A stretch of 64,000 nucleotides of DNA from an uncultured cyanobacterium. Its GTDB lineage: Bacteria; Cyanobacteriota; Cyanobacteriia; Phormidesmidales; Phormidesmidaceae. Positions 8,061-57,278 of the stretch are shown here, in pieces (position 1 is the stretch's first letter; each line of letters opens with the position of its first letter). Both the position numbers and the translations under genes were made by a program. Under the pieces are notes generated by a model. The model made no database searches. It was given only the letters and a program-made list of their open reading frames with translations, and was not told the DNA's origin. Where the stretch lies: NCBI GenBank assembly GCA_963793265.1, contig CAWBZI010000001.1, positions 480,001 to 544,000 on the forward strand. Direction: 5' to 3'.

Positions 8061-9375
8061 AGGAGCCGTTCGGAATTAACTTACCGGCTTGTTATTGTTT
8101 GTGTGGCTGTATTTCGTAGTTCCAGTCGCCCTGAAAAGCATTGCGCTTTAGCCGCACAGTTCTGATTTCTTCATCAGTCACTTTTCGACCAGTTAGATAT
8201 GTTTTACTATCGAGCCAACAGTGCACTTCTAACCCCGCTTCGGTTCGCGTTGAACCTACCAAATTGACCACGACTTGATGCGTTTCTAAGGGAACGCCTC
8301 GCCAATTTCGCGTGATATGACAGAACAAGCGATGCTCAATTTTGTTCCACTTGCTCGTTCCTGGCGGATAATGGCAAACCTCAATGTTCATCCCTGTTTC
8401 GTCTGCCAATCGTTGCAGTTCAAGTTTCCACAACCGGTTGCGATGACCGTTGCTACCGCCGCTATCGGCCGTAATCAGCAAACGATATGGTTTTGTATAG
8501 CGTGGCTGGCCTAACTCGTGCCACCAACGTCGAATCGCTTCGACGGCGAACTCGGCGGTGTCGCTACTAATGCCGACGGATACACCGGCTTCATTTTCGG
8601 CCATATCGTAAACACCATAGGGAACTGCTTTGCCCAGTTTCTTGTCGGGAAAGTCATGCGTGTCTACGGCTAGTGGATTGCCATTAGGTCGGTACTCTTG
8701 TCCTTTATTCGCTTTGTTTCCCAGCACTTCTTTCTTCTTCGTATCGACCGAAATCGCAGGCCGTCCGCTGCTTTGATAGGTTTTGACTCGTTTGGCAATA
8801 TGCTTGAATTGCGCATCGCGCTCAGGGTGGTTTTTACCTTCTCTAGTTTTGCGATTACCTTGAAGCGAATAGCCTAATTCTTTGAGCAGTTCGGCTAGCT
8901 TTGTGCGACCCACCGGATAACCCTGCTGCTTCAGCTCACTTTGCAAATTCGTCAAGCTTTTACACGTCCAGCGCAGCGGCGTTTGCGGGTCGCCTCGTCC
9001 AGTCGGCTCGACTAAACACTCGACCGCAAGCGGTAAGCTTTGATGGTGATGTTCGAGCCGCTTCCGCCCGCCGCCCGCTCGCCGCTGGCGACTCGCCGTT
9101 AATGGCGTTGAGCTACGCAGCTCTTGAATACCATTTCTCACGGTTCGATCTGATAGCCCAGTGGCATTTGCCACCGCGACAATGCCACCATGCCCGATGG
9201 CCATCGCTTCGGTTGCGGCCCAGCGACGACGACCCCGTTCATCTAAATCGTTGCTTAAGGCTAGATATTTTACACGGATGGTTTCAACTGTTTGAGCGTT
9301 TGGCATCTCAACAGCGTCGCAAAATTATGCTGTTTAATCAACCTGAAATCGGTAATTTATTTGCGAACGACTCCT
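8061..9375 (-). mobile_element. ISAzo13-family insertion sequence, 1315 bp
   Basis: Imperfect TIRs AGGAGCCGTTCGGAATTAACTTACCG vs reverse complement AGGAGTCGTTCGCAAATAAATTACCG; TA on both flanks (8059-8060, 9376-9377); intact transposase. Confidence 0.9.
8092..9306 (-). CDS. ISAzo13 family transposase
   Basis: LDERGRRRWAATEA, GDPQTPLRWTCKS, ISVDTKKKE, TADSGGSNG and HYPPGTSKWNKIEHRLF motifs. Confidence 0.95.
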   Translation of the reverse strand: MPNAQTVETIRVKYLALSNDLDERGRRRWAATEAMAIGHGGIVAVANATGLSDRTVRNGIQELRSSTPLTASRQRRAGGGRKRLEHHHQSLPLAVECLVEPTGRGDPQTPLRWTCKSLTNLQSELKQQGYPVGRTKLAELLKELGYSLQGNRKTREGKNHPERDAQFKHIAKRVKTYQSSGRPAISVDTKKKEVLGNKANKGQEYRPNGNPLAVDTHDFPDKKLGKAVPYGVYDMAENEAGVSVGISSDTAEFAVEAIRRWWHELGQPRYTKPYRLLITADSGGSNGHRNRLWKLELQRLADETGMNIEVCHYPPGTSKWNKIEHRLFCHITRNWRGVPLETHQVVVNLVGSTRTEAGLEVHCWLDSKTYLTGRKVTDEEIRTVRLKRNAFQGDWNYEIQPHKQ

Positions 9376-9376
9376 T

Positions 9377-9970
9377 AGCAATGAGGCGCAACAGACTCGC
9401 GATTTAGAAGGTGACTTCACGATAGACACCTATCCCGAGTGCGTCGCGGTCAGAAAATGGCTACGACAGAACGACCGAATCGATGCCTACTTTGCGCTGC
9501 ACTCATCCGCTCTGATAGCGCCAGGCTTGTTCTTCTACGTAGGAAGTGGTTCTGAACCAGATCGTACTGACCAGTTGACTCATCTGCTTACTACCGCAGT
9601 TCCTGATTTTATTCCACTCCTATCCAGCGATCCGGCTGGCGTTGCCTCAGCGGTTTTATCTCCAGGACTTTTCGAGATACCACTTTCAAATCCTGAAGAG
9701 CTGAACCTGGTGAAGTCTAGCAACTCTCTCACATTTATCAGTCGACACTTTCAGCCTCAGTTCGTTGGTGTTTCAGAGATGCCACTAGCTGTCTGTCCTG
9801 CGCTCCAAGATGCGCCGCTATCTGAGATTGACCTGTACAATTGCAAATTTAGACAAACAGGCCAGATCGAACACTCAATTAGAGAGACTGAGCTAGGCTT
9901 ACAGCTTTCTATAATGAAAACTTTCGCTGAGGCCGTCGCACAGTTTGTTTCGCTGAACGCAACGACTTAG
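9377..9970 (+). pseudogene. 5'-truncated M14-like zinc carboxypeptidase fragment abutting the ISAzo13
   Basis: Frame of ORF 9527-9970 is open back to the IS end: RDLEGDF..YPECVAVRKWL..IDAYFALHS..VSEMP resembles the M14 C-terminal half; the N-terminal HxxE motif is missing. Confidence 0.5.
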
Positions 9971-10117
9971 TTCTTCTTTCGATGTCTCGTTATCTAGAGG
10001 TATGAGAACAAATAGATAGATTGAAGTGATACGCAAATAGTCCTTTAGTGCAACGACACTCTCGCTGAACCTTTAATGACAAATACTATGCCAGAGCCAC
10101 ATTTAGGTATTATTTTG

Positions 10118-10588
10118 CTAGGCCGCTTCAAGATGCAGCGGAACAGAATAGTCTCGGCGCTGACCGTTCTTGTCAGTCAGCAAGGAAGGCAATTCTGTCT
10201 TTTCATCGTAGTTAACGTACCAGACCCAGTTGAACCGGCGCTCGCCAGGAATCAAAGACTCATTTTCACCTGGGATAACGTATTGCAAAATATGAGAGTT
10301 TGGAAACTCATAGAACACAAAGCGTTCGGTGAAAATCTCAGCAGTCTCTGCATCTAAATCTGATTCATCGACCAGTTCTCGATAGCCCACGTAGCCTGCA
10401 TACTGAGGTTCATAAGTGGGCAGTAGCTGTTGCCGAACAGAAGACGTGATGCCGTCTGCACCAATCAGCATGTCACCGACTTCTTGCGAACCATCGGTGA
10501 AAGTCACGGTGACTTTCTCATCATCTTGAACAAGGCTCTTGAACGTTTTTCCCTGGTGGATGATAATGGCGCGATTCTTCTTTTCCAT
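10118..10588 (-). pseudogene. FAD-dependent monooxygenase remnant with an internal and a 3' deletion
   Basis: MEKKNRAIII is joined directly to HQGKTF, so the expected GxGxxG region is absent; GADGITSSVR, YAGYVGYR and RRFNWVWY are retained; similarity ends at DYSVP. Confidence 0.75.
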
Positions 10589-10643
10589 AGCCCGTTTTCT
10601 CCATCAATGCTTAGAACAACAATCAAACGCAATCTGAATAACG

Positions 10644-10967
10644 TTAGCGACTAGCCACTTTCCTCTTGTCAGCCGCTTTCTGAAAGGCAGATACTAAAGC
10701 GCTGACTGACTGTGCTCCAGGAATAGTTTGGACACCAATCTGAAGTGCAGGAACGCCGTGAATGCCTTTCAAACTTACTTGCTTCTCCATCGCTCGAACC
10801 GCTTCAATCCCTTCGGTAGAGTGCAAAAAAGACTTAGCATTTTCTACTGTCTCTACACCTACCTCAGCAGCCAGTACTGCTAGCGTATCAGCATCGCTGA
10901 TATTCTGACCTTCGCTGAAGTAAGCGCGCAAAATTCGCTCTGCCATCTCAGTTGCGAGGCCCTGCAG
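10644..10967 (-). pseudogene. FrnE/DsbA-family oxidoreductase, C-terminal half only
   Basis: RAYFSEGQNISDADTLAVLAAEVG, GIHGVP and IPGAQS are present; no CxxC N-terminal domain. Confidence 0.75.
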
Positions 10968-12334: not shown

Positions 12335-13244
12335 ATGGATAAGTTGGAAAGTATGCGAGCGTTTGCGGCTGTGGTGGATCACAGTGGATTTGCGGCGGCA
12401 GGAAGGCAGTTGGGGCTATCGCGGTCGGTGGTGAATAAGCTGGTGGCGCAGCTTGAGGGCAATTTGGATGTGCAGCTATTGCAGCGGACAACCCGGCGAG
12501 TGAGTCCGACTGATACGGGGCGGGCCTATTATGAGCGCTGTGTGGATATTTTGGCCGAGGTAGCGGCGGCTGAAGAGGCGGTGACGCAGCTTCAGAGTGA
12601 GCCGAAAGGGGCGCTGCGAATTAATGCGCCGATGTCGTTTGGCACAATGCATTTGGCAGAGGCGATCGCACAGTTCATGCAGCGCTACCCAGACATTCAG
12701 GTACAGCTCACGCTCAACGATCGCTTTATCGATTTAATCGAAGAAGGCTTTGATGTGACCCTACGAATTGCTCAGATGAGTGCAGATGAGGCTTTGGTCA
12801 CGCAGGCGATCGCACCCATCCGCAGAGTAGTCTGCGCCTCACCGAGCTATCTCGAAAAGCGAGGAACGCCCGCTCATCCCAAGCGATTTGTCAGCGCATG
12901 ACTGTTTGGAGTATGGGCATTTAGCAACGAGCAGTAAGTGGCGGCTTACAGGCGAAGACGGCAAGCTTTTGAGCGTGAAGCTGCGCTGTAAGGGCTATTC
13001 AAATAATGGAGAAGTGCTGAGGGAAGAGGCGATCGCAGGTGTCGGCATTGCGCTTTTACCCACCTTCATCGTCGGCGAAGCCATACAATCAGGTCGGCTC
13101 AAAATCATCTTGGACAACTACAGCCCACCACCGCTAACGGCCTACTTGAGCTATGCCACGAACCGCCACCTTTCTACCAAAATCCAGCTACTATCCGCCT
13201 TCTTGCAAGACTGGTTTGCTGTTCCCGTTTGGGAAACCAACTAG
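12335..13244 (+). pseudogene. LysR-type transcriptional regulator with a single frameshift near 12878-12882
   Basis: ORFs 12335-12901 and 12888-13244 join into a full CrgA-like LysR if one base is removed from CATCCCAAGCGAT (restoring [11 protein letters not shown]); true mutation or sequencing error. Confidence 0.85.
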
Positions 13245-14635: not shown

Positions 14636-15106
14636 CTAGGGGCGATCGGCCAATCGGTAGTTCCGCACAAAAATCTCAATTTGATTCAGCGCTTGGGCCA
14701 CAGACTTTTCAGCCGCAACGGGGCGAATTTGCTTAGCTCGCATTTCAGTCGTTGGAAGCTGAAACCACCAGGACTGAGGCGACTGTGAGTGCCGCTCATG
14801 CATTGCCGTCAGCAGCGCAGCCGGGCTTTCATCGGCTACATCAGCACTATTATTTTGAGTAGTGCCCAGCGGGCTGACCTTGATTTGAACGCTGGGCTGA
14901 TCGCAAGGCGTAATAAAAATGGCGTAGTCAGACTCAGCAACAGCATTGAATGCTGAAGGCTGATCGACTGAGGGCTGTTCGTAGATGAGCGATCGCACAC
15001 CCGGTAGCTGCCACTCAGAAACAGCTCTAGAAATCTGCTGAGTAACTTCGTTTTCTTGGCAGCAAACAATCCAGAACTTTGTTTTAGTCGCAGCAGAGGT
15101 TGACAT
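14636..15106 (-). CDS. Degenerate hydrogenase maturation protease (HoxW-like) fold protein
   Basis: WQLPGVRSL, DYAIFI, PAALL, PQSWW.LP and AQALNQI align by eye with cyanobacterial HoxW; the GNxLRxDDG motif is absent. Confidence 0.55.
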   Translation of the reverse strand: MSTSAATKTKFWIVCCQENEVTQQISRAVSEWQLPGVRSLIYEQPSVDQPSAFNAVAESDYAIFITPCDQPSVQIKVSPLGTTQNNSADVADESPAALLTAMHERHSQSPQSWWFQLPTTEMRAKQIRPVAAEKSVAQALNQIEIFVRNYRLADRP

Positions 15107-15444
15107 AGCGTTTAGTAGTGAACAATTTTTTGGTGGAACAGAGCAGTTTCGTTGAGCATGCCGTGTTTTTAATACTGACAGGGATTATGAAAGCCAAACG
15201 CTAAGATTATTTAAAGCGATTTGATTCCCAGTAATAGGTCTATGAGGACAGTTTATAGCCTCCTGAAAGCCTTTCTGTGAGCGGCTTATCTCAATTAATA
15301 TGACCTTCTTAAGGTTCCCTGCTTTTCGGGAACGATTCACCCTTTTTGATGAAATATTATTTGATGATTTGTTAAGCAAAAGACTGTTGTATTTCTGCCC
15401 TTTTATCTTCTTTTCGTAACATTTCTCCAAGGCTTCCTGACGCT

Positions 15445-16005
15445 ATGACTTCACATCCGAAAGTGCTGACAGCCCAATTTTTGCAAGCGCTGACGTTTGC
15501 CGCTGACAAACACCGCAATCAACGTCGTAAGGGCGCTGATCAAACGCCTTATATCAATCACCCTATTACGGTGGCCAATATTTTGATTAATGAAGCGGAC
15601 ATTACAGACGAGTGCGTTTTGATAGCGGCTTTGCTGCACGATACAGTTGAAGATACCGACACTACGTTTGAAGAAATTGAGCAGCGCTTTGGTAAAACTG
15701 TCCGCGATATTGTGAGTGAGGTGACTGATGATAAGTCTTTGCCAAGCCCGATTCGCAAGCAGCAGCAGATTGATCATGCCGGTGGATTGAGCGATCGCGC
15801 TAAGCTCCTCAAGCTCGCTGATAAAACGGCTAATCTTCGCGATATGGCCACTGTTCCGCCCGCAGACTGGTCAGCAAAGCGAATAGATGATTATTTGGAA
15901 TGGGGTAAGACCGTGATCGATCAGCTTCGCGGCAGACATGCTCAGCTAGAGGCTTTGTTCGATCAGGCGTACGAGGCGGGGAAAGCGACCGCGAACAAGG
16001 CTTAA
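15445..16005 (+). CDS. HD-domain protein, MESH1/small alarmone hydrolase-like
   Basis: AADKHRNQRRK, PYINHP, AALLHDTVEDT, EVTDDK and KLADKTANLRD motifs. Confidence 0.9.
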   Translation: MTSHPKVLTAQFLQALTFAADKHRNQRRKGADQTPYINHPITVANILINEADITDECVLIAALLHDTVEDTDTTFEEIEQRFGKTVRDIVSEVTDDKSLPSPIRKQQQIDHAGGLSDRAKLLKLADKTANLRDMATVPPADWSAKRIDDYLEWGKTVIDQLRGRHAQLEALFDQAYEAGKATANKA

Positions 16006-16058
16006 GTTCAAGCAATACTAACGGGCGACATAATTTTCATTTCTGGTTTGGATAGAGC

Positions 16059-17744
16059 ATGGCGGCGATTAAAAAAATTCTATTTTTAGCGGCCAATCCT
16101 CGATCGACGAGTCGGTTGAGCTTGGATGAAGAGGCTAAGAATATACGCCAAGGGCTAGAGCGGGCGAGACGGCGAGAAAGTTTTGAGATTATTACGCGCT
16201 GGGCAATAGATGCAGAAGAGTTGAGGCGATCGCTCTTAGATGTAGAGCCGCATATCGTCCACTTTTCGGGGCATGGCTTTGGCGCAGACGGGCTAGCGCT
16301 GCATACGACTGATGGCAAGGCAAAGCTGGCGAGCAGTGAGGCACTGGCAAATTTGTTTGCTCTGTTTGCCGGGCAAATAGAGTGTGTGCTGCTAAACGCC
16401 TGCTACTCAGAGACGCAGGCAGCAGCCATTCATCGGCATGTGGACTATGTAATCGGGATGAATAATGCGGTGGGCGATCGCGCTGCAATCAATTTTGCAG
16501 TCGGCTTTTACGATGCGCTCGGAGCAGGCAAGTCTTACGATATTGCCTATAAGTTTGGCTGTAGTGCTATTGATTTTGAAGATATCGTACAGAGCATTAC
16601 GCCTGTATTGATGGCGAGATCTGCGAAAGTGGTCGAGCGAGAAACCCAGAAGAATATGCCGGTAGATCCGATTAAGGATAAGCCAGCGTGGCGTTCGAGC
16701 ACTGACCAGAGTGCTGAACCAACAGGCGTGATCTTAGAGAATCCAGAGGGGCAGGTGCCTTTAACGTCTCCTTTTTACGTGAGGCGATCGCCCATCGAAA
16801 CCGACTGCTACGCCGAAATAGAGCAGCCCGGCGCGCTGATCAGAATTAAAGCGGCCCGGCAGATGGGCAAATCTTCTTTGATGACCCGAATTTTAGATCA
16901 CGGTAAAAAGCAGGGCTATCGCGCCGTTCCGATTTACTTTCAGGAGGCAGACGGCGAGATTTTTAGTGACTTAGAGCAGTTTCTTCGCTGGTTTTGCGCG
17001 GTAATTGCCGAAGAACTTAGTTTAGATATCCCGATGGATGCTATCTGGAAATCTAGTGCGCTCGGGAACAAGCGAAAGTGCACTAACTTTTTTCAAAAAC
17101 ACGTGCTGCCTCAAATCAAAGAGCCTCTAATCTTGGGGCTAGACGAGGTGGATTTGGTGTTTCAGCATCTCAAAATTGCTCAAGACTTTTTTGCTTTGCT
17201 GCGCGCCTGGCACGAGCGGGGTAAAAATCAGGTGACCTGGCAAGGCTTGCGGCTCGTAATTGTCCACTCTAGAGAAGTTTATATTCCGCTAGATATGCAC
17301 CAGTCGCCCTTTAATGTAGGGATGCCGGTAGAGCTGTCTGAGTTCAGTATTTCTCAAGTTGACGATCTCGCTAAGCGTCATGGCCTAATGCTGAGCGACT
17401 CAGAAATTTATAGCCTGACTGATATGGTGGGCGGCCATCCTTATTTAGTGCGGGTGGCGCTAAGAGAATTGGCGAGAGGTCGGCTGACGCTGCCTCAGTT
17501 TTTGCGCGTGGCTCCCACTGAAGAAGGGCCTTATGACGATCATTTGCGCAGGCACCTGGCAAATTTGCATTCGGACGAAAAGCTGGTGAGTGCGATTGAA
17601 GAAATGATTAATAGCGATCGCCCGGTCGTCATTGCAACCGATGAAGTTTTTCAGCTAGACAGCATGGGCCTGGTGCAGCGTCAGGGCAATGCAGCAGCGC
17701 CGCTGTGTGATTTATATAAACAGTACTTTAGGGAGCGGCTATAA
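16059..17744 (+). CDS. CHAT (caspase-like protease) domain + AAA_35 ATPase protein
   Basis: [14 protein letters not shown] (His), LNACYS (Cys), FYDALGAG; then PEGQVPL, RQMGKSS (Walker A), LGLDEVD (Walker B), SPFNVG, GGHPYL. Confidence 0.9.
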
Positions 17745-17748
17745 GACA

Positions 17749-20700
17749 ATGAATGCTGGATACCACGCTTCTCCTTACCAAATTGGCGGCTCGCTTCAGC
17801 TCAATGCGCCTACTTACGTCACTCGTCAGGCCGATAGTGAGCTTTATGAAGGGCTGAGCGCAGGCGAGTTTTGCTATGTGCTCAACTGTCGGCAAATGGG
17901 TAAGTCGAGCTTGCGGGTGCGGGCGATGGCGCGGTTGCAGGCAGAGGGGACGGCCTGCGTCGCGATTCAGATGACGGACATTATTGATGAGGAAACGACG
18001 CCTGAGCAGTTTTATGCGGGCGTAATCGATAGCATTACGACCGATTTGAATTTGGACTTCGATAATTTGGACTGGTGGGAAGCTAACGGCCATTTGTCTC
18101 TAGTTAAGCGATTTAGCAAGTTTGTTGAAACGGTTTTGCTTCGGCGAATTGCAAGTGACGTCGTTATTTTTATCGATGAAGTGGATCGCGTGCTTAGCCT
18201 TCCTTTTAAGGTGAATGGCTTTTTTGCGGCGATTCGCGAGTGCTACAACAAACGCGCCGACAGTTCGATTTATCGTAGGCTCACCTTTGCCTTACTCGGG
18301 GTGGCGACGCCTTCAGATTTGATCTCAGACAAACGCAGTACGCCTTTTAACGTAGGTAGAGCCGTTGAGCTGACGGGGTTTACCTTAGCAGAGGCGCGAC
18401 CTTTAGCAGATGGGTTGGGCGTTGATGACCAGGAAAAAGCACTAGCAGCTATTTTGAAGTGGACGGGCGGCCAGCCGTTTTTGACTCAAAAAATCTGTCG
18501 ACTGGTGGCGGCAGCTCATGCGCCTCAGGGGCAGTCGGTGGCGGATTGGGTGGACGGGCTGATTCAGCAGAATGTGGTGCAAAACTGGCAGTCGAATGAT
18601 GAGCCGGAGCATTTGCGGACGATTCGCGATCGCCTCCTCTCTGACGAACAAAAATCAGCCCGGCTGCTCGGGCTCTATCAACAGATCTTAGCGAGAGGCG
18701 GCTTAGCCGTAGAAAATGCGAATGCCGATCATATTGACCTGCGGCTTTCTGGATTAGTCGTCGAAAGGCAGGGGCAGCTTCGCATTTACAACCTGATTTA
18801 TGCAGCTATTTTTAATGCGACATGGGTAGGACAGCAGCTTGCGGAGTTACGGCCTTACTCGGTGGCGATCGCTGCCTGGCTAGCGTCTAATCGGTTAGAC
18901 AAATCCTGGCTGCTAGAAGGGCGAGACCTGCGCGAAGCGAAGCAATGGTCAGCCGATAAAGTGCTGCCGCCAGAGGACTATGCTTTTTTAGCGGCGAGTC
19001 AGGAGCTGGCGACCGAAGCGGTGGAAGAAGCCCGGCAAACGCTGGCGCAGGCAAATCGAACGCTGGCCGATGCGAATGTAGAATCCACGGCTAGAATCAG
19101 CAGCGCTAACAAACGCCTGCGGATCGGCTCGGGCATTTTGATGGGAACGATCGCGCTGTTTGCCTTTACGGGCGTGTATGCGAGTCAGCGGATTGGTACG
19201 GCTCAAAGTGAGAGCGAGCAGGCGCAGCAAGATAGTTTGGCAGCCGCCGATCAGATACAGCAGGCCGAGGCCGACCTAGAAGCAGCGAGCATAGTGCAGG
19301 CAGCGTTGGAAGAAAAAACAGAAAAAACAGAGCTAGAGGTGGCGCAGGCTGAGGAGAAAAGTGAAAAGATTGAAGCTGAGTCCCAGCAAAAAATTGGCGA
19401 AGCTGAGCAGAAGGTCGAGGTGGCCCAACGGCGAATAGAACAGGCGGCGGTGCAGGCGGAGCATGCGCGGGCGGCTACAGAACAGGCTGAAGCGGAACAG
19501 GCGATTGCACAAGTTAAAGCGACTGAGGCTGAGGAGAACGCCGTTGCTGCGCAAGCTCAGGTCGCCGCGGCGCAAACCCAAGTAGAAATCGCTCAGCAGG
19601 CAGAAGCCGACATTCGCCAGCAGCAACAAACTATTCGAGCAGGCATTGATTTAGAGCGTCGTAGCGCGGCTTTGTTAAGAAGACCGCCCGTTCAACAGGC
19701 CGGATTAGGCTTTTTGCTAGACGCAATAACAGTCGCACGTGAAGCAGAACAGCTATTAGCCTCATCGAACCAGGACGATGCAACAGATTTTACAAGAGAA
19801 CATCCTGCGGCCAGTTTGGCTTTAAGAACAGCGGTTAACAGCGTTTTAGAGAAAGCAGAGGTTAAGGGAGATCGTCCCGTTTTTAGCCCTGATGGTAATC
19901 GAATAGCGACTTCTAATACCTTTGAAAATCAAACATTCCTATACGACCTTTCGGGACAGCTCATACGCGCCTACGACGGAACAAACCCTCTCTTCAGTGG
20001 AGACAATCAGCAGCTACTTACCTCATCGACAGGCTCTGATATTATCTATCTGTATGATATTTCTGGCGCGCTCCGTCTGCGCTTAGACGGAAAATCTGCG
20101 TCATTTAGCCAGAACTCTCAGAAAATACTGTACGCGCAGGGAGCTGTCGCCACTTCTGTTCTTTATGATATTGCTAGCGATCGCACCGTCTCTTTCAACG
20201 GATATTCTCCCCAATTTGCACAAGGCGATCAGCGCATCGTCACCACCTCCTTTATCGATGAAAAGGTTTATGTGTATGACTTATCAGGAGAGCTTTTGCG
20301 CACCTTTGAGGGGACTTTCCCAAGGCTGAGTGAAGACGGCCAAAGGCTAGCGCTTTCATCGGGCGATCGATCTCTTTTATACGATCTTTCTGGGCGACAA
20401 ATTGCTGAGATGGAAGGAATTTCTCCTAACATTAGTAAAGACGGTCAGCGCGTAGCCACTTCAAAGCTTCCAGACGCTTACTTTTACGACGCCGCTGGAA
20501 ATCTCTTATCGTTTTTAGAAGGCAGTAGCGCCCCCGTTTTTAGTGAAGATAGTCAACATTTCGCGACTAGCTTGAGTAACCGTTTCGCCATTAACCTATA
20601 TGACTTTTCAGGTCAGCTTCTTTCTTCTCTTGAGGGCAAAACGCCTTTGTTTAATCGTGGTGGCAATCTGATAGCGGTCTCTGCAGCCGGATACAGAGAA

Positions 20701-22242
20701 CAGACTTCTTTCCGCAGGCCCTCTTCTCTATACGACTTATCAGGGCAGCAACTGGCTACTTTTAGTGGAGATATCACTGAGTTTAGTGAGGGCAATCAAG
20801 CGCTTCTAACTTCGTCCGAGGAAGCTACCACCTCTCGTCTCTACTCACTAAATAACGACAACATGCTAGCAAGCGTTCAGGCTGACAGCGCCATTATCTC
20901 ACCGGATAAGGCCAGTCAGCGTCTCGTAACCTACGCAGAAACGGATAATCTCTCTCGCCTATACGATTTCTCAGGTCAGCTTCTAGCTACTTTTGAAGGC
21001 AGCCGTCTAGCCTTATTTCCTGATGAACAGAGAGTCACTGCTATCTCTACTGACAATTCAATGGTTCGCCTATACGACTTATTGGGAAATCACCTTGCCA
21101 CGCTAGCAGGCCAGAAAAATACACTTAACGCATCCGACCGAAATGGCCAAGCCATTGTCACCTATTCTCGCGCCGACGAAACGTCTTTCGTATACGATTT
21201 TTCCGGTAAGCTTCTCGCATCTATCGCAGGTGTTCCCCGTGGCTTCAGCCCAGATGGCCGGGTAATACTGATAAATTCTTCTAATCAACTGGGAGCCAAT
21301 GCCTCACTGTACGACGCTTCTGGTCAGCTTATCTCCAACTTGATAGGCGATGAGACTCGCTTTAGTGCTGATAGTCAAAGGCTAGTGACTTATGAGAATG
21401 TTGATAACACATCCCGTCTCTACGACTTATCGGGTCAGCTTTTAATGTCTGCTACAGGGCGGCTGAGTTTCAATGAGGAGGGCACCAGACTTTTGAGCGC
21501 TTCTGCGGGTCAAACTGAGCTGTATGACACTTCAGGAAATCGACTGGCCTCCTTTCGCGGATCTTTTCCTCTTTTTGTTAATAGTCAAAGAATTCTCACG
21601 AGTCCGCCGCCTGCCGAGGGCGCTTCTCAAGCGGATTCACATAAAGTGAATACCACCAAACTGCTACACGATGCATCGGGTCAATTTATTGCAACCATAG
21701 AAGGGATATATTTCACGTCTAGCGAAGACGCTCAGCGCATAGTCACCTACTCTTTTGATGACAGCTTCTCCCGGCTATACGATGCGTCGGGTCAGTTGCT
21801 AGCTTCGCTCAACGGCAGTAGCCCTGTTTTGAATGAAGCGGCGCAAGCGATCGCAACCCGTTCACACTCAAAAGATACAACCTACCTTCACGACTTCTCT
21901 GGCCAACTGATTGCAACGCTTCCCGGCATGTTCGGCGGATTTAGTGAAGATAAGCAGAAAATGGTCATAACAGTTGCCGACGAAGATATCAGCCGTGTTT
22001 ACAACACAAACGGCGATCTCTTAGCAGAGTTTCCAGGGACATTAACTCATCAACAGGACAAGCTCGGCTTCACACCCGATAGCGACTATCTTTTCACCAG
22101 AACCCAGGATGGCTACTATCACCTCTGGCATTTAGACAACGGATTACAAGATCTACTAGCGCAAGGCTGTGACTGGGTAAGACCTTATCTGCAAGCCAAT
22201 CCTGAAGAGGAAAGGGCCCGCTTTTGTCTGCAAGCACAATAG
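17749..22242 (+). CDS. AAA_35 ATPase - TM helix - coiled coil - about 20 WD40-like beta-propeller repeats
   Basis: [63 protein letters not shown]-rich stalk; YDxSGQ repeats; ATG 17749 lies 4 nt after the upstream stop. Confidence 0.88.
19860..22140 (+). repeat. About 20 degenerate coding repeats of about 36 aa (108 nt), consensus [28 protein letters not shown]
   Basis: Counted 20 YD/HD-x-SG-like anchors in the translation; TACGAC/TT-TCxGGxCAGCT recurs in the DNA. Confidence 0.85.
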
Positions 22243-56663: not shown

Positions 56664-57278
56664 CTATGACTTAGCCGTCAAAACCTGCTGAGCTGTCAGC
56701 GTCAAGCCTGAAAAGCTCGGAGAAACTATTCGCTGATCGCCGCGCAGCACTGTTGTTTGATAGCGCCTGTCTTCATCAAGAATGCAAACCGTCAGCGTAG
56801 GTTGCTTAGGGCGGCCAATAAAAATTTCACCGCCGAGCCCTGCATGATCAACAATCCAATATTCTCTAATGCCTAAAATTGCATAATCTTCAAACTTACG
56901 AGCATAGTCATTCTGCCAATTGCTACTGACGATTTCGGCAACAAATTTAATCGACTGAGCCAGCATCAAAATCGACTCCCTTGCCCAAAGCGGTTCCTGC
57001 GCTAAAGTTTCACTATTTACGACCATCACATCTGGACGAAAGGCTGTGAAGTTGCCTAATGGCTTGAGGATGCCGCGCTGCAAAATGAAATAAGGTAGGT
57101 CTGCTGTATCAATCTGGACGTTGAGCTTACGATCAATAAAAGCGGCTACCTGCTCATGCGGCCCGGTCGGTTCCAAGTCAAATACCTCACCATCAATCAG
57201 TTCATAACGACTATCGTCGCCGTACTGCGATAAAAACTGCTCAACTGTTATGGGGCTTGACTGTACAACCGTCACCAT
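56664..57278 (-). CDS. Uma2 family (DUF820) endonuclease-like protein
   Basis: RYELIDGE, RPDV, VAEIVS..DY..K..DYAILGIREYWIVD motifs. Confidence 0.9.
   Translation of the reverse strand: MVTVVQSSPITVEQFLSQYGDDSRYELIDGEVFDLEPTGPHEQVAAFIDRKLNVQIDTADLPYFILQRGILKPLGNFTAFRPDVMVVNSETLAQEPLWARESILMLAQSIKFVAEIVSSNWQNDYARKFEDYAILGIREYWIVDHAGLGGEIFIGRPKQPTLTVCILDEDRRYQTTVLRGDQRIVSPSFSGLTLTAQQVLTAKS

Follow-up and report, generated by a model that had tools for sequence, protein, structure and literature searches.

A 64,000-nucleotide (nt) stretch of DNA from an uncultured cyanobacterium of the family Phormidesmidaceae (contig CAWBZI010000001.1, positions 480,001 to 544,000; hereafter, the window) contains two adjacent, co-oriented genes of STAND ATPases, which form a real two-gene module. 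The first of them, called here gene 2, joins a caspase-like CHAT domain to an ATPase of the AAA_35 family. The second one, gene 3, joins a related ATPase to a hydrophobic helix, a coiled-coil stalk and a long array of propeller blades. We are nearly certain that the two genes are a TIR-less variant, with diverged propellers, of a system described computationally in 2014. A first-pass annotation of the window, made from the sequence alone, regarded the locus as its best candidate for a novel system. That rank cannot be kept, since, according to the available part of PMC9218822, Dunin-Horkawicz et al. 2014 had already presented the two-gene system. The current work adds evidence for the topology in the membrane, for fusions that occur naturally and for how widely the attached domains are exchanged, not the discovery of the system.

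The available part of Pereira and Lupas 2022 (PMC9218822) reports that the propeller of structure 2YMU ends a STAND protein and that its gene is coupled to a second STAND gene with a TIR domain. The operon is described there as conserved in cyanobacteria, and a caspase domain may be present in addition on the TIR protein. Its rapid turnover suggested a role in innate immunity, a suggestion attributed there to Dunin-Horkawicz et al. 2014. The sequence of Npun_R6612 printed in the supplement shows the same parts as gene 3 in full: the ATPase motifs of the type designated B below, a hydrophobic segment, a long coiled coil, a cap, 14 blades and a terminal pair of cysteines. Thus, gene 3 has the prototype architecture. 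The ATPase of gene 3 is of the same type as that of Npun_R6612, whose motifs agree with our type B consensus in a by-eye comparison, and two homologues printed alongside are named “AAA-like domain-containing”. The top fold match of the gene 3 propeller model is 2YMU itself. We file the pair as a variant of the WRAP/Npun_R6612 system because gene 2 has no TIR domain: a Pfam scan of gene 2 gave no TIR match. The words “transmembrane”, “periplasm” and “signal peptide” are absent from the main text of PMC9218822; the 2014 paper may mention the helix.

The first-pass annotation listed three co-oriented genes with gaps of 53 nt (between gene 1 and gene 2) and 4 nt (between gene 2 and gene 3), and all of this is present. 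The three open reading frames (ORFs) of the plus strand encode 186, 561 and 1497 amino acids (aa), respectively; their coordinates are collected in Table 1. The start of gene 3 was taken to be the ATG at 17749, as a longer frame found by the ORF finder, from 17689, overlaps gene 2. Genes 2 and 3, with their gap of 4 nt, may be transcriptionally coupled. A scan for promoters and terminators in positions 15000-16200 gave no signal above chance level.

Gene 2 has a CHAT match at aa 24-160 (E 1.2e-9) followed by AAA_35 at aa 229-559 (E 3.5e-134). Its CHAT domain is homologous to the compact CHAT of the SAVED-CHAT protease (PDB 8TL0; E 1.3e-13). The motifs HFSGHG and LNACYS begin at aa 68 and aa 112, and their His72 and Cys115 fall on the SAVED-CHAT catalytic dyad; the spacing agrees, with the numbering of the PDB chain offset by 20 residues. 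The dyad and its fusion to a P-loop ATPase had thus been read correctly from the start. Among 37 CHAT-bearing relatives of gene 2 both residues are kept in 36 (34 by pattern and two by reading of the aligned rows). The catalytic motifs are therefore intact, and proteolysis is predicted. SAVED-CHAT is switched on by oligomerisation, according to the available part of bioRxiv 10.1101/2023.06.23.546230.

The AAA_35 match in gene 3 spans aa 14-355 (E 1.2e-30). The two ATPases were expected to be related, and they are: both belong to AAA_35 and share 26% identity over 247 aa. Across the family these ATPases fall into two clades, A (gene 2) and B (gene 3), with clean separation for 65/65 proteins of each. 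The Gly-Lys of Walker A and the G-x-P motif are present in 65/65 rows of both alignments. The second and third acidic residues of Walker B are both kept in 65/65 rows for B; for A the figures are 49/65 and 58/65, respectively. A GxP helical domain after the ATPase core is a feature of STAND proteins. Fold comparison covered the B ATPase domain. Its model (gene 3; pLDDT 92) best matches 2FNA and 2QEN, the structures of SSO1545 and PAB2304 (Z 20.0, root-mean-square deviation 4.5-4.6, 312 aligned residues). The next structure has Z 16.2; NLRs, Cdc6/Orc and MalT rank below SSO1545 and PAB2304. A search of solved-structure sequences with the A ATPase gave nothing significant. We take SSO1545 and PAB2304 to be members of the MNS clade of STAND NTPases, and since they are the best fold matches of the B model, the A and B ATPases are probably of MNS type. 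AAA_35 is presumably the same as the Npun2340/2341 family, and we believe Npun2340/2341 to be an adjacent paralogue pair. The “Npun2340/2341 family” (Leipe et al. 2004) is named as an MNS family in the available part of Kaur et al. 2021 (PMC8195603).

The family is large, with 3721 clusters at 50% identity that match at E 1e-30 or better, a number that may include B-type and fused proteins. AAA_35 was found in 31/41 genomes searched and in 0/14 controls; many cyanobacterial genomes have several copies. The relatives of gene 2 are nearly all cyanobacterial. The host genome of the window (5.68 Mb) has 16 AAA_35 matches: seven strong ones of type A, each with a weak type B match nearby, and two singles. 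Six of its seven pairs are tandem (one with a Uma2 gene inserted) and one is divergent; A carries CHAT in five of the seven, and two of those five also have TIR.

The prediction that genes 2 and 3 would be conserved as a pair is borne out outside the host genome. We took 100 of the 101 listed strong A matches from other genomes; two were dropped for want of an ORF spanning the match, which left 98 scorable loci. Five of these lie at contig edges, and pairing was scored on the other 93. A B gene follows on the same strand within 2 kb downstream in 72/93 (one of them across an N gap), in 28/29 genomes, and lies nearby in another arrangement in five more. When A carries CHAT, B follows in 32/34. 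Most A loci come from one genus, so the counts are not independent. Among the 150 best matches of the A profile, ten have a full A and a full B in one chain, three in the order A-B and seven in the order B-A; two more have a partial B and one has two A domains. Some of the fusions come from named isolates, and one is shared by two Nostoc strains. One more apparent A-B fusion (L098) spans a run of N and was counted as a pair. Because natural fusions occur in both orders, we infer that the A and B ATPase domains would work together; the fusions are the best evidence of this, not proof of contact. Partner A and B proteins co-diverge (rho 0.76; the largest permuted value was 0.295), which points to co-inheritance rather than contact and could be caused by linkage alone.

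Several arrangements at these loci deserve mention in their own right. Small genes often sit between A and B while the pair is kept (L017:4648-5346; L066, L068, L079, L090, L133, L140, L162). Uma2 was assigned by Pfam; the other inserts resemble PIN, HNH or HsdR-type genes by eye. In the divergent pair at L021:5547-9499 (G000:C1:827546-831498) the usual order is reversed, with B forming the C-terminal output part of a helix-sensor-helix-HAMP receptor; L138 is similar. The gene immediately downstream of a CHAT-TIR A / WD40 B pair, at L019:8643-12542 (G000:C2:144642-148541), encodes an nSTAND1-WD40 protein that has a hydrophobic segment.

The domains joined to the two ATPases swap freely across the family. 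Outputs on A include CHAT, TIR, cyclase, kinase and DNA-binding domains; inputs on B include propeller, TPR, CHASE2, GAF and FHA. The N-termini at the 98 A loci are CHAT (18), CHAT with TIR (19), TIR alone or combined with another part (8), cyclase with TIR (5), kinase (5), short and unnamed (38), and none or cut (5), so that the proposed exchange of effectors on gene 2 was indeed found among its relatives. Of the B proteins not classed as propeller proteins, 23 of 36 were scanned; at the threshold used, their tails are CHASE2 (6), TPR (4), GAF (3), CHAT (2), FHA (1), DUF2610 (1) and none (6). One B domain in the host genome is the C-terminus of a helix-helix-HAMP receptor. In two non-cyanobacterial records, L164 and L165, A carries Trans_reg_C as its DNA-binding head and B is of the helix-WD40 type; the two look alike despite being labelled as different phyla, and one label may be wrong. 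The short N-termini of 77-175 aa (38/98; for example, L020:2946-3329 and L021:6639-6980) have no confident Pfam match, with weak HTH matches in one of them, and are probably DNA-binding. A genes with such N-termini are the class that is most often unpaired (17/37). Two B proteins (L089, L092) have DUF4384 after the helix by weak Pfam matches.

The first-pass annotation counted about 20 propeller blades in gene 3, close to our figure of about 21 repeats of about 37 aa, followed by a short helical tail with two cysteines. AlphaFold2 folds the repeats as four-stranded blades (pLDDT 72.5); the pTM of 0.48 leaves propeller packing undefined. Pfam WD40 models stay below the cut-off on gene 3, the blades being atypical. 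Matches of gene 3 to NCBIfam T9SS-tail models were rejected: no single stretch passes, and we attribute them to chance resemblances of a short repeat motif that add up. Of the relatives of the 37-aa blade type for which an AAA_35 domain is listed, the six closest are B proteins. The blades of homologues P0002-P0004 are near-identical except at a few variable positions; the number of blades per protein lies between a handful and about 21. By the strand assignment of the model, the variable positions map to the d-a junction and to the b-c loop, the face through which WD40 propellers usually bind. Near-identical DNA from marine metagenomes offers a weak hint of change in gene 3: the differences cluster at 20686-20950, with six changed and five silent codons (aa 980-1068), and 5/5 listed codon differences in gene 2 are silent. 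This comparison is based on 40 listed differences of 93, and the contigs may mix strains.

Taken together, these data suggest the following mechanism. Gene 3 would be a single-pass receptor with its ATPase in the cytoplasm and its stalked propellers outside it, in the periplasm or possibly in the thylakoid lumen. Binding of a macromolecule at the propeller face would cluster or re-register the receptors. The B ATPases would then undergo a nucleotide switch and form assemblies with the A ATPases, which are soluble, as the pairing and the fusions suggest. The CHAT domains would thereby be clustered and proteolysis turned on, by analogy with the effect of oligomerisation on SAVED-CHAT. The most likely purpose of such a device would be recognition of non-self or of an invader with a protease response. 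On a narrow balance of probability, we favor this full mechanism together with its role in non-self recognition. The immune role is supported by CHAT and/or TIR on 50/98 A N-termini, by the patchy distribution with broken copies, and by the amplified blades of the homologues. Also counted in its favor are 39 plasmid records and, as a single picked example, one plasmid copy between restriction-enzyme genes.

A number of observations weigh against this mechanism and role. The neighbours of the pair are housekeeping genes, hisB upstream and msrB and leuC downstream. The blades of gene 3 are diverged rather than freshly amplified (the best DNA segments are 60-83% alike). No conserved gene stood out as a candidate substrate, and 16/93 A loci have no B nearby. 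Many input and output domains of the family (GAF, CHASE2, HAMP, cyclase, kinase, Trans_reg_C) belong to ordinary signalling. Gene 3 matches none of the PADLOC models. PADLOC had been proposed as a check, and it revealed no enrichment of defence genes nearby: flanking genes matched PADLOC models in 8/116 cases, mostly through generic domains, versus 4/44 controls, in a comparison of one gene on each side of the pair with a small control set from the window.

Some of these points are what would be expected if the same wiring served general sensing or development, such as decisions on surface contact, envelope state, filaments or biofilms. The pair would then be the STAND-based equivalent of two-component signalling, in which CHAT would be a specific protease with a regulatory task. 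The CHASE2, GAF and FHA inputs, the helix-helix-HAMP receptor, the cyclase, kinase and Trans_reg_C outputs, the lack of defence enrichment and the several copies per genome all fit such a role. We consider it rather unlikely, given the prevalence of CHAT and/or TIR heads, the recent amplification of blades in homologues, the plasmid copy between restriction-enzyme genes and the state of the locus itself. The pair occupies a variable slot after hisB and the gene 1 homologue, filled by a CHAT-ATPase in only 4/20 congeners with that homologue. In two congeners the B gene at this slot encodes the same helix, stalk and propellers as gene 3 but runs into a contig end; in another, B is short and terminates with a hydrophobic helix, and in one more it is broken.

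With non-self recognition kept as the favored role of genes 2 and 3, a wider proposal can be made, which is possible but which we advance tentatively. The A/B pair would be a general-purpose two-protein STAND platform of cyanobacteria and a few other bacteria, in which swappable inputs on B, mostly across the membrane, are relayed by the ATPases to swappable outputs on A. The copy studied here would be a membrane-spanning, NLR-like receptor that senses an invader or a non-self surface while it is still outside the cytoplasm and sets off a caspase-like protease inside. The platform would be modular in the manner of two-component systems, and this receptor would realize the logic of Toll-like receptors with parts of an apoptosome. 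The TIR-less copy is a convenient test case because it has a single output with a clean position for a catalytic mutant (Cys115).

In the favored mechanism the helix of gene 3 would cross the membrane. One transmembrane helix and an A/E/Q-rich coiled coil of about 140 aa had been noted at first; the single hydrophobic helix and the coiled coil are there, and the length has to be corrected to about 155 aa (aa 483-640 are 61% A/E/Q), which would span about 23 nm. In one close homologue (P0002) the stalk is nearly absent. As a control, the slot after the ATPase was scored for hydrophobicity in the 64 B proteins that are long enough. The score is at least 1.7 before CHASE2 in 6/6 proteins and below 1.2 in 4/4 proteins with GAF or FHA. 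CHASE2 is described in the literature as an extracellular domain. The presence of the helix before CHASE2 and not before GAF or FHA supports a real membrane crossing, and the earlier idea of a membrane-spanning helix has gained from this control. A stricter helix rule is passed by 23/28 propeller-type B proteins, but by only 3/6 CHASE2 proteins. The mean net charge in 47 B proteins is +3.0 before the helix and +0.5 after it, in agreement with an N-in orientation. Thus the helix probably behaves like an N-in/C-out membrane crossing, yet it is optional in the family.

The alternative is that the hydrophobic segment does not cross the membrane but packs in the coiled coil or merely anchors the protein, and that the propeller senses within the cytoplasm, like the sensors of Avs and NLR proteins. 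In line with this, gene 3 has one hydrophobic 19-mer (aa 459-477) of modest strength (Kyte-Doolittle 1.65), and in two family members (L100, L113) the segment is followed by a CHAT domain. Among 119 further B-propeller proteins the helix is present in 104 and absent from 15, 14 of which resemble one clade with a clean deletion; the rows are related proteins, and the counts overstate their independence. It follows that propellers also work without the helix. The terminal cysteine pair at first seemed to be a sign of a periplasmic disulfide (17/23 proteins with the helix versus 1/5 without it in the first set). We rejected it, as all 15 helix-less proteins of the larger set keep the pair, which thus is no evidence for an oxidising compartment. 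The contrast between CHASE2 and GAF or FHA, the charge bias and the retention of the segment in most propeller homologues nevertheless make a non-crossing segment improbable. A group of B-WD40 proteins cleanly without helix and stalk (P0211, P0217-P0219, P0222 and others) offers a natural cytoplasmic version for comparison.

Gene 1 lies upstream of the pair and was presented in the first-pass annotation as its third component. It has an HD_4 domain (E 1.8e-21) and matches the human and fly MESH1 structures (E 4e-52); it is like Mesh1 and small alarmone hydrolases by sequence, with the activity predicted and no link to the pair. A three-gene system, in which the Mesh1-like enzyme would clear a nucleotide signal for genes 2 and 3, has in its favor the co-orientation, the 53-nt gap and the same gene order in four congeners, but is largely refuted by distribution and highly improbable: the HD gene occurs in 20/24 congeners, mostly beside hisB, 16 of these 20 have no adjoining CHAT-ATPase, and the gene is near only 4/100 A loci and at none of the six other host-genome pairs. 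We therefore treat it as a hisB-linked neighbour.

Table 1. Features of the locus (positions in the window)
Feature	Position	Strand	Basis
Gene 1, Mesh1-like HD hydrolase, neighbour	15445..16005	+	HD_4 match
Gene 2 (gene A), CHAT and A-type AAA_35 / MNS-STAND ATPase, 561 aa; output subunit (proposed role)	16059..17744	+	
CHAT (caspase-like) domain; His72 at 16272-16274, Cys115 at 16401-16403	16068..16613	+	SAVED-CHAT dyad alignment
A-type ATPase: Walker A Lys271, Walker B DExD, GxP helical domain	16737..17741	+	
Gene 3 (gene B), B-type AAA_35 / MNS-STAND ATPase, helix, stalk, cap, propellers, 1497 aa; sensor subunit (proposed role)	17749..22242	+	
B-type ATPase: Walker A Lys52, Walker B DExD, GxP; nearest solved folds SSO1545, PAB2304	17773..18873	+	
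Predicted single transmembrane helix, aa 459-479; basic residues before, acidic stalk after	19123..19185	+	Topology inferred
A/E/Q-rich predicted coiled-coil stalk, ~155 aa	19195..19656	+	
Helical cap ahead of propellers	19666..19848	+	
~21 propeller blades, ~37 aa each, mutually diverged; probably three 7-bladed propellers	19849..22131	+	
C-terminal helices with conserved Cys pair (1474, 1493)	22132..22239	+	

Three other places in the window are worth recording. A LysR regulator at 12335-13244 (+) is split into two overlapping frames of 188 and 118 aa; in congeners it is one ORF of about 300 aa, and the window copy has either a frameshift or an assembly error. At 8092-10946 (-) an ISAzo13-type transposase (PF07592) lies beside an FAD-binding enzyme and a DSBA-like protein that are present as short fragments, and the region resembles a decayed stretch. 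A Uma2 protein at 56664-57278 (-) strongly matches the PADLOC candidate PDC-S03 (E 8.5e-80).

We found no experimental study of the AAA_35 A/B pair or of its family in the literature searched, which included text from PMC6805158, PMC5587647, PMC7159879 and PMC13581612, and the comparison with known systems is as follows. SSO1545 and PAB2304 of archaea are stand-alone ATPases, whereas the ATPases of genes 2 and 3 carry effector and sensor domains. The compact CHAT domain is shared with SAVED-CHAT of the Haliangium type III-B CRISPR system, with the dyad aligned; here the oligomerising unit would be the STAND ATPase instead of the cA3-binding SAVED domain, and no substrate protease is encoded alongside. 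To our knowledge, characterised bacterial STAND receptors are cytoplasmic single chains. Avs proteins and bacterial NLRs, which are cytoplasmic, have effector, ATPase and sensor in one chain; here effector and sensor are placed on two different ATPases, and the predicted helix of gene 3 separates the sensor from its ATPase. If the helix does cross the membrane and the ATPases relay the signal, this would be a different wiring of the STAND switch. The parts themselves are alike: a STAND switch, a repeat sensor and an enzymatic effector are common to Avs, bacterial NLR and Apaf-1-like proteins, including forms with caspase-like and propeller domains according to the available part of PMC13581612. 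An AAA_35 or Npun entry was not found in seven of the supplementary files of that paper.

The closest relative remains the WRAP/Npun_R6612 system, to the extent that it is described in the available part of PMC9218822. Both have two adjacent, co-oriented STAND genes, a caspase-like domain on the first and C-terminal propellers on the second. Gene 2 differs in having no TIR, which is present together with CHAT in two of its host-genome paralogues. The blades differ as well: gene 3 has about 21 diverged blades of 37 aa, while Npun_R6612 has 14 near-identical blades of 41 aa. Recently amplified, near-identical blades, a feature of WRAP proteins, are thus missing from gene 3 and are present in its homologues P0002-P0004.

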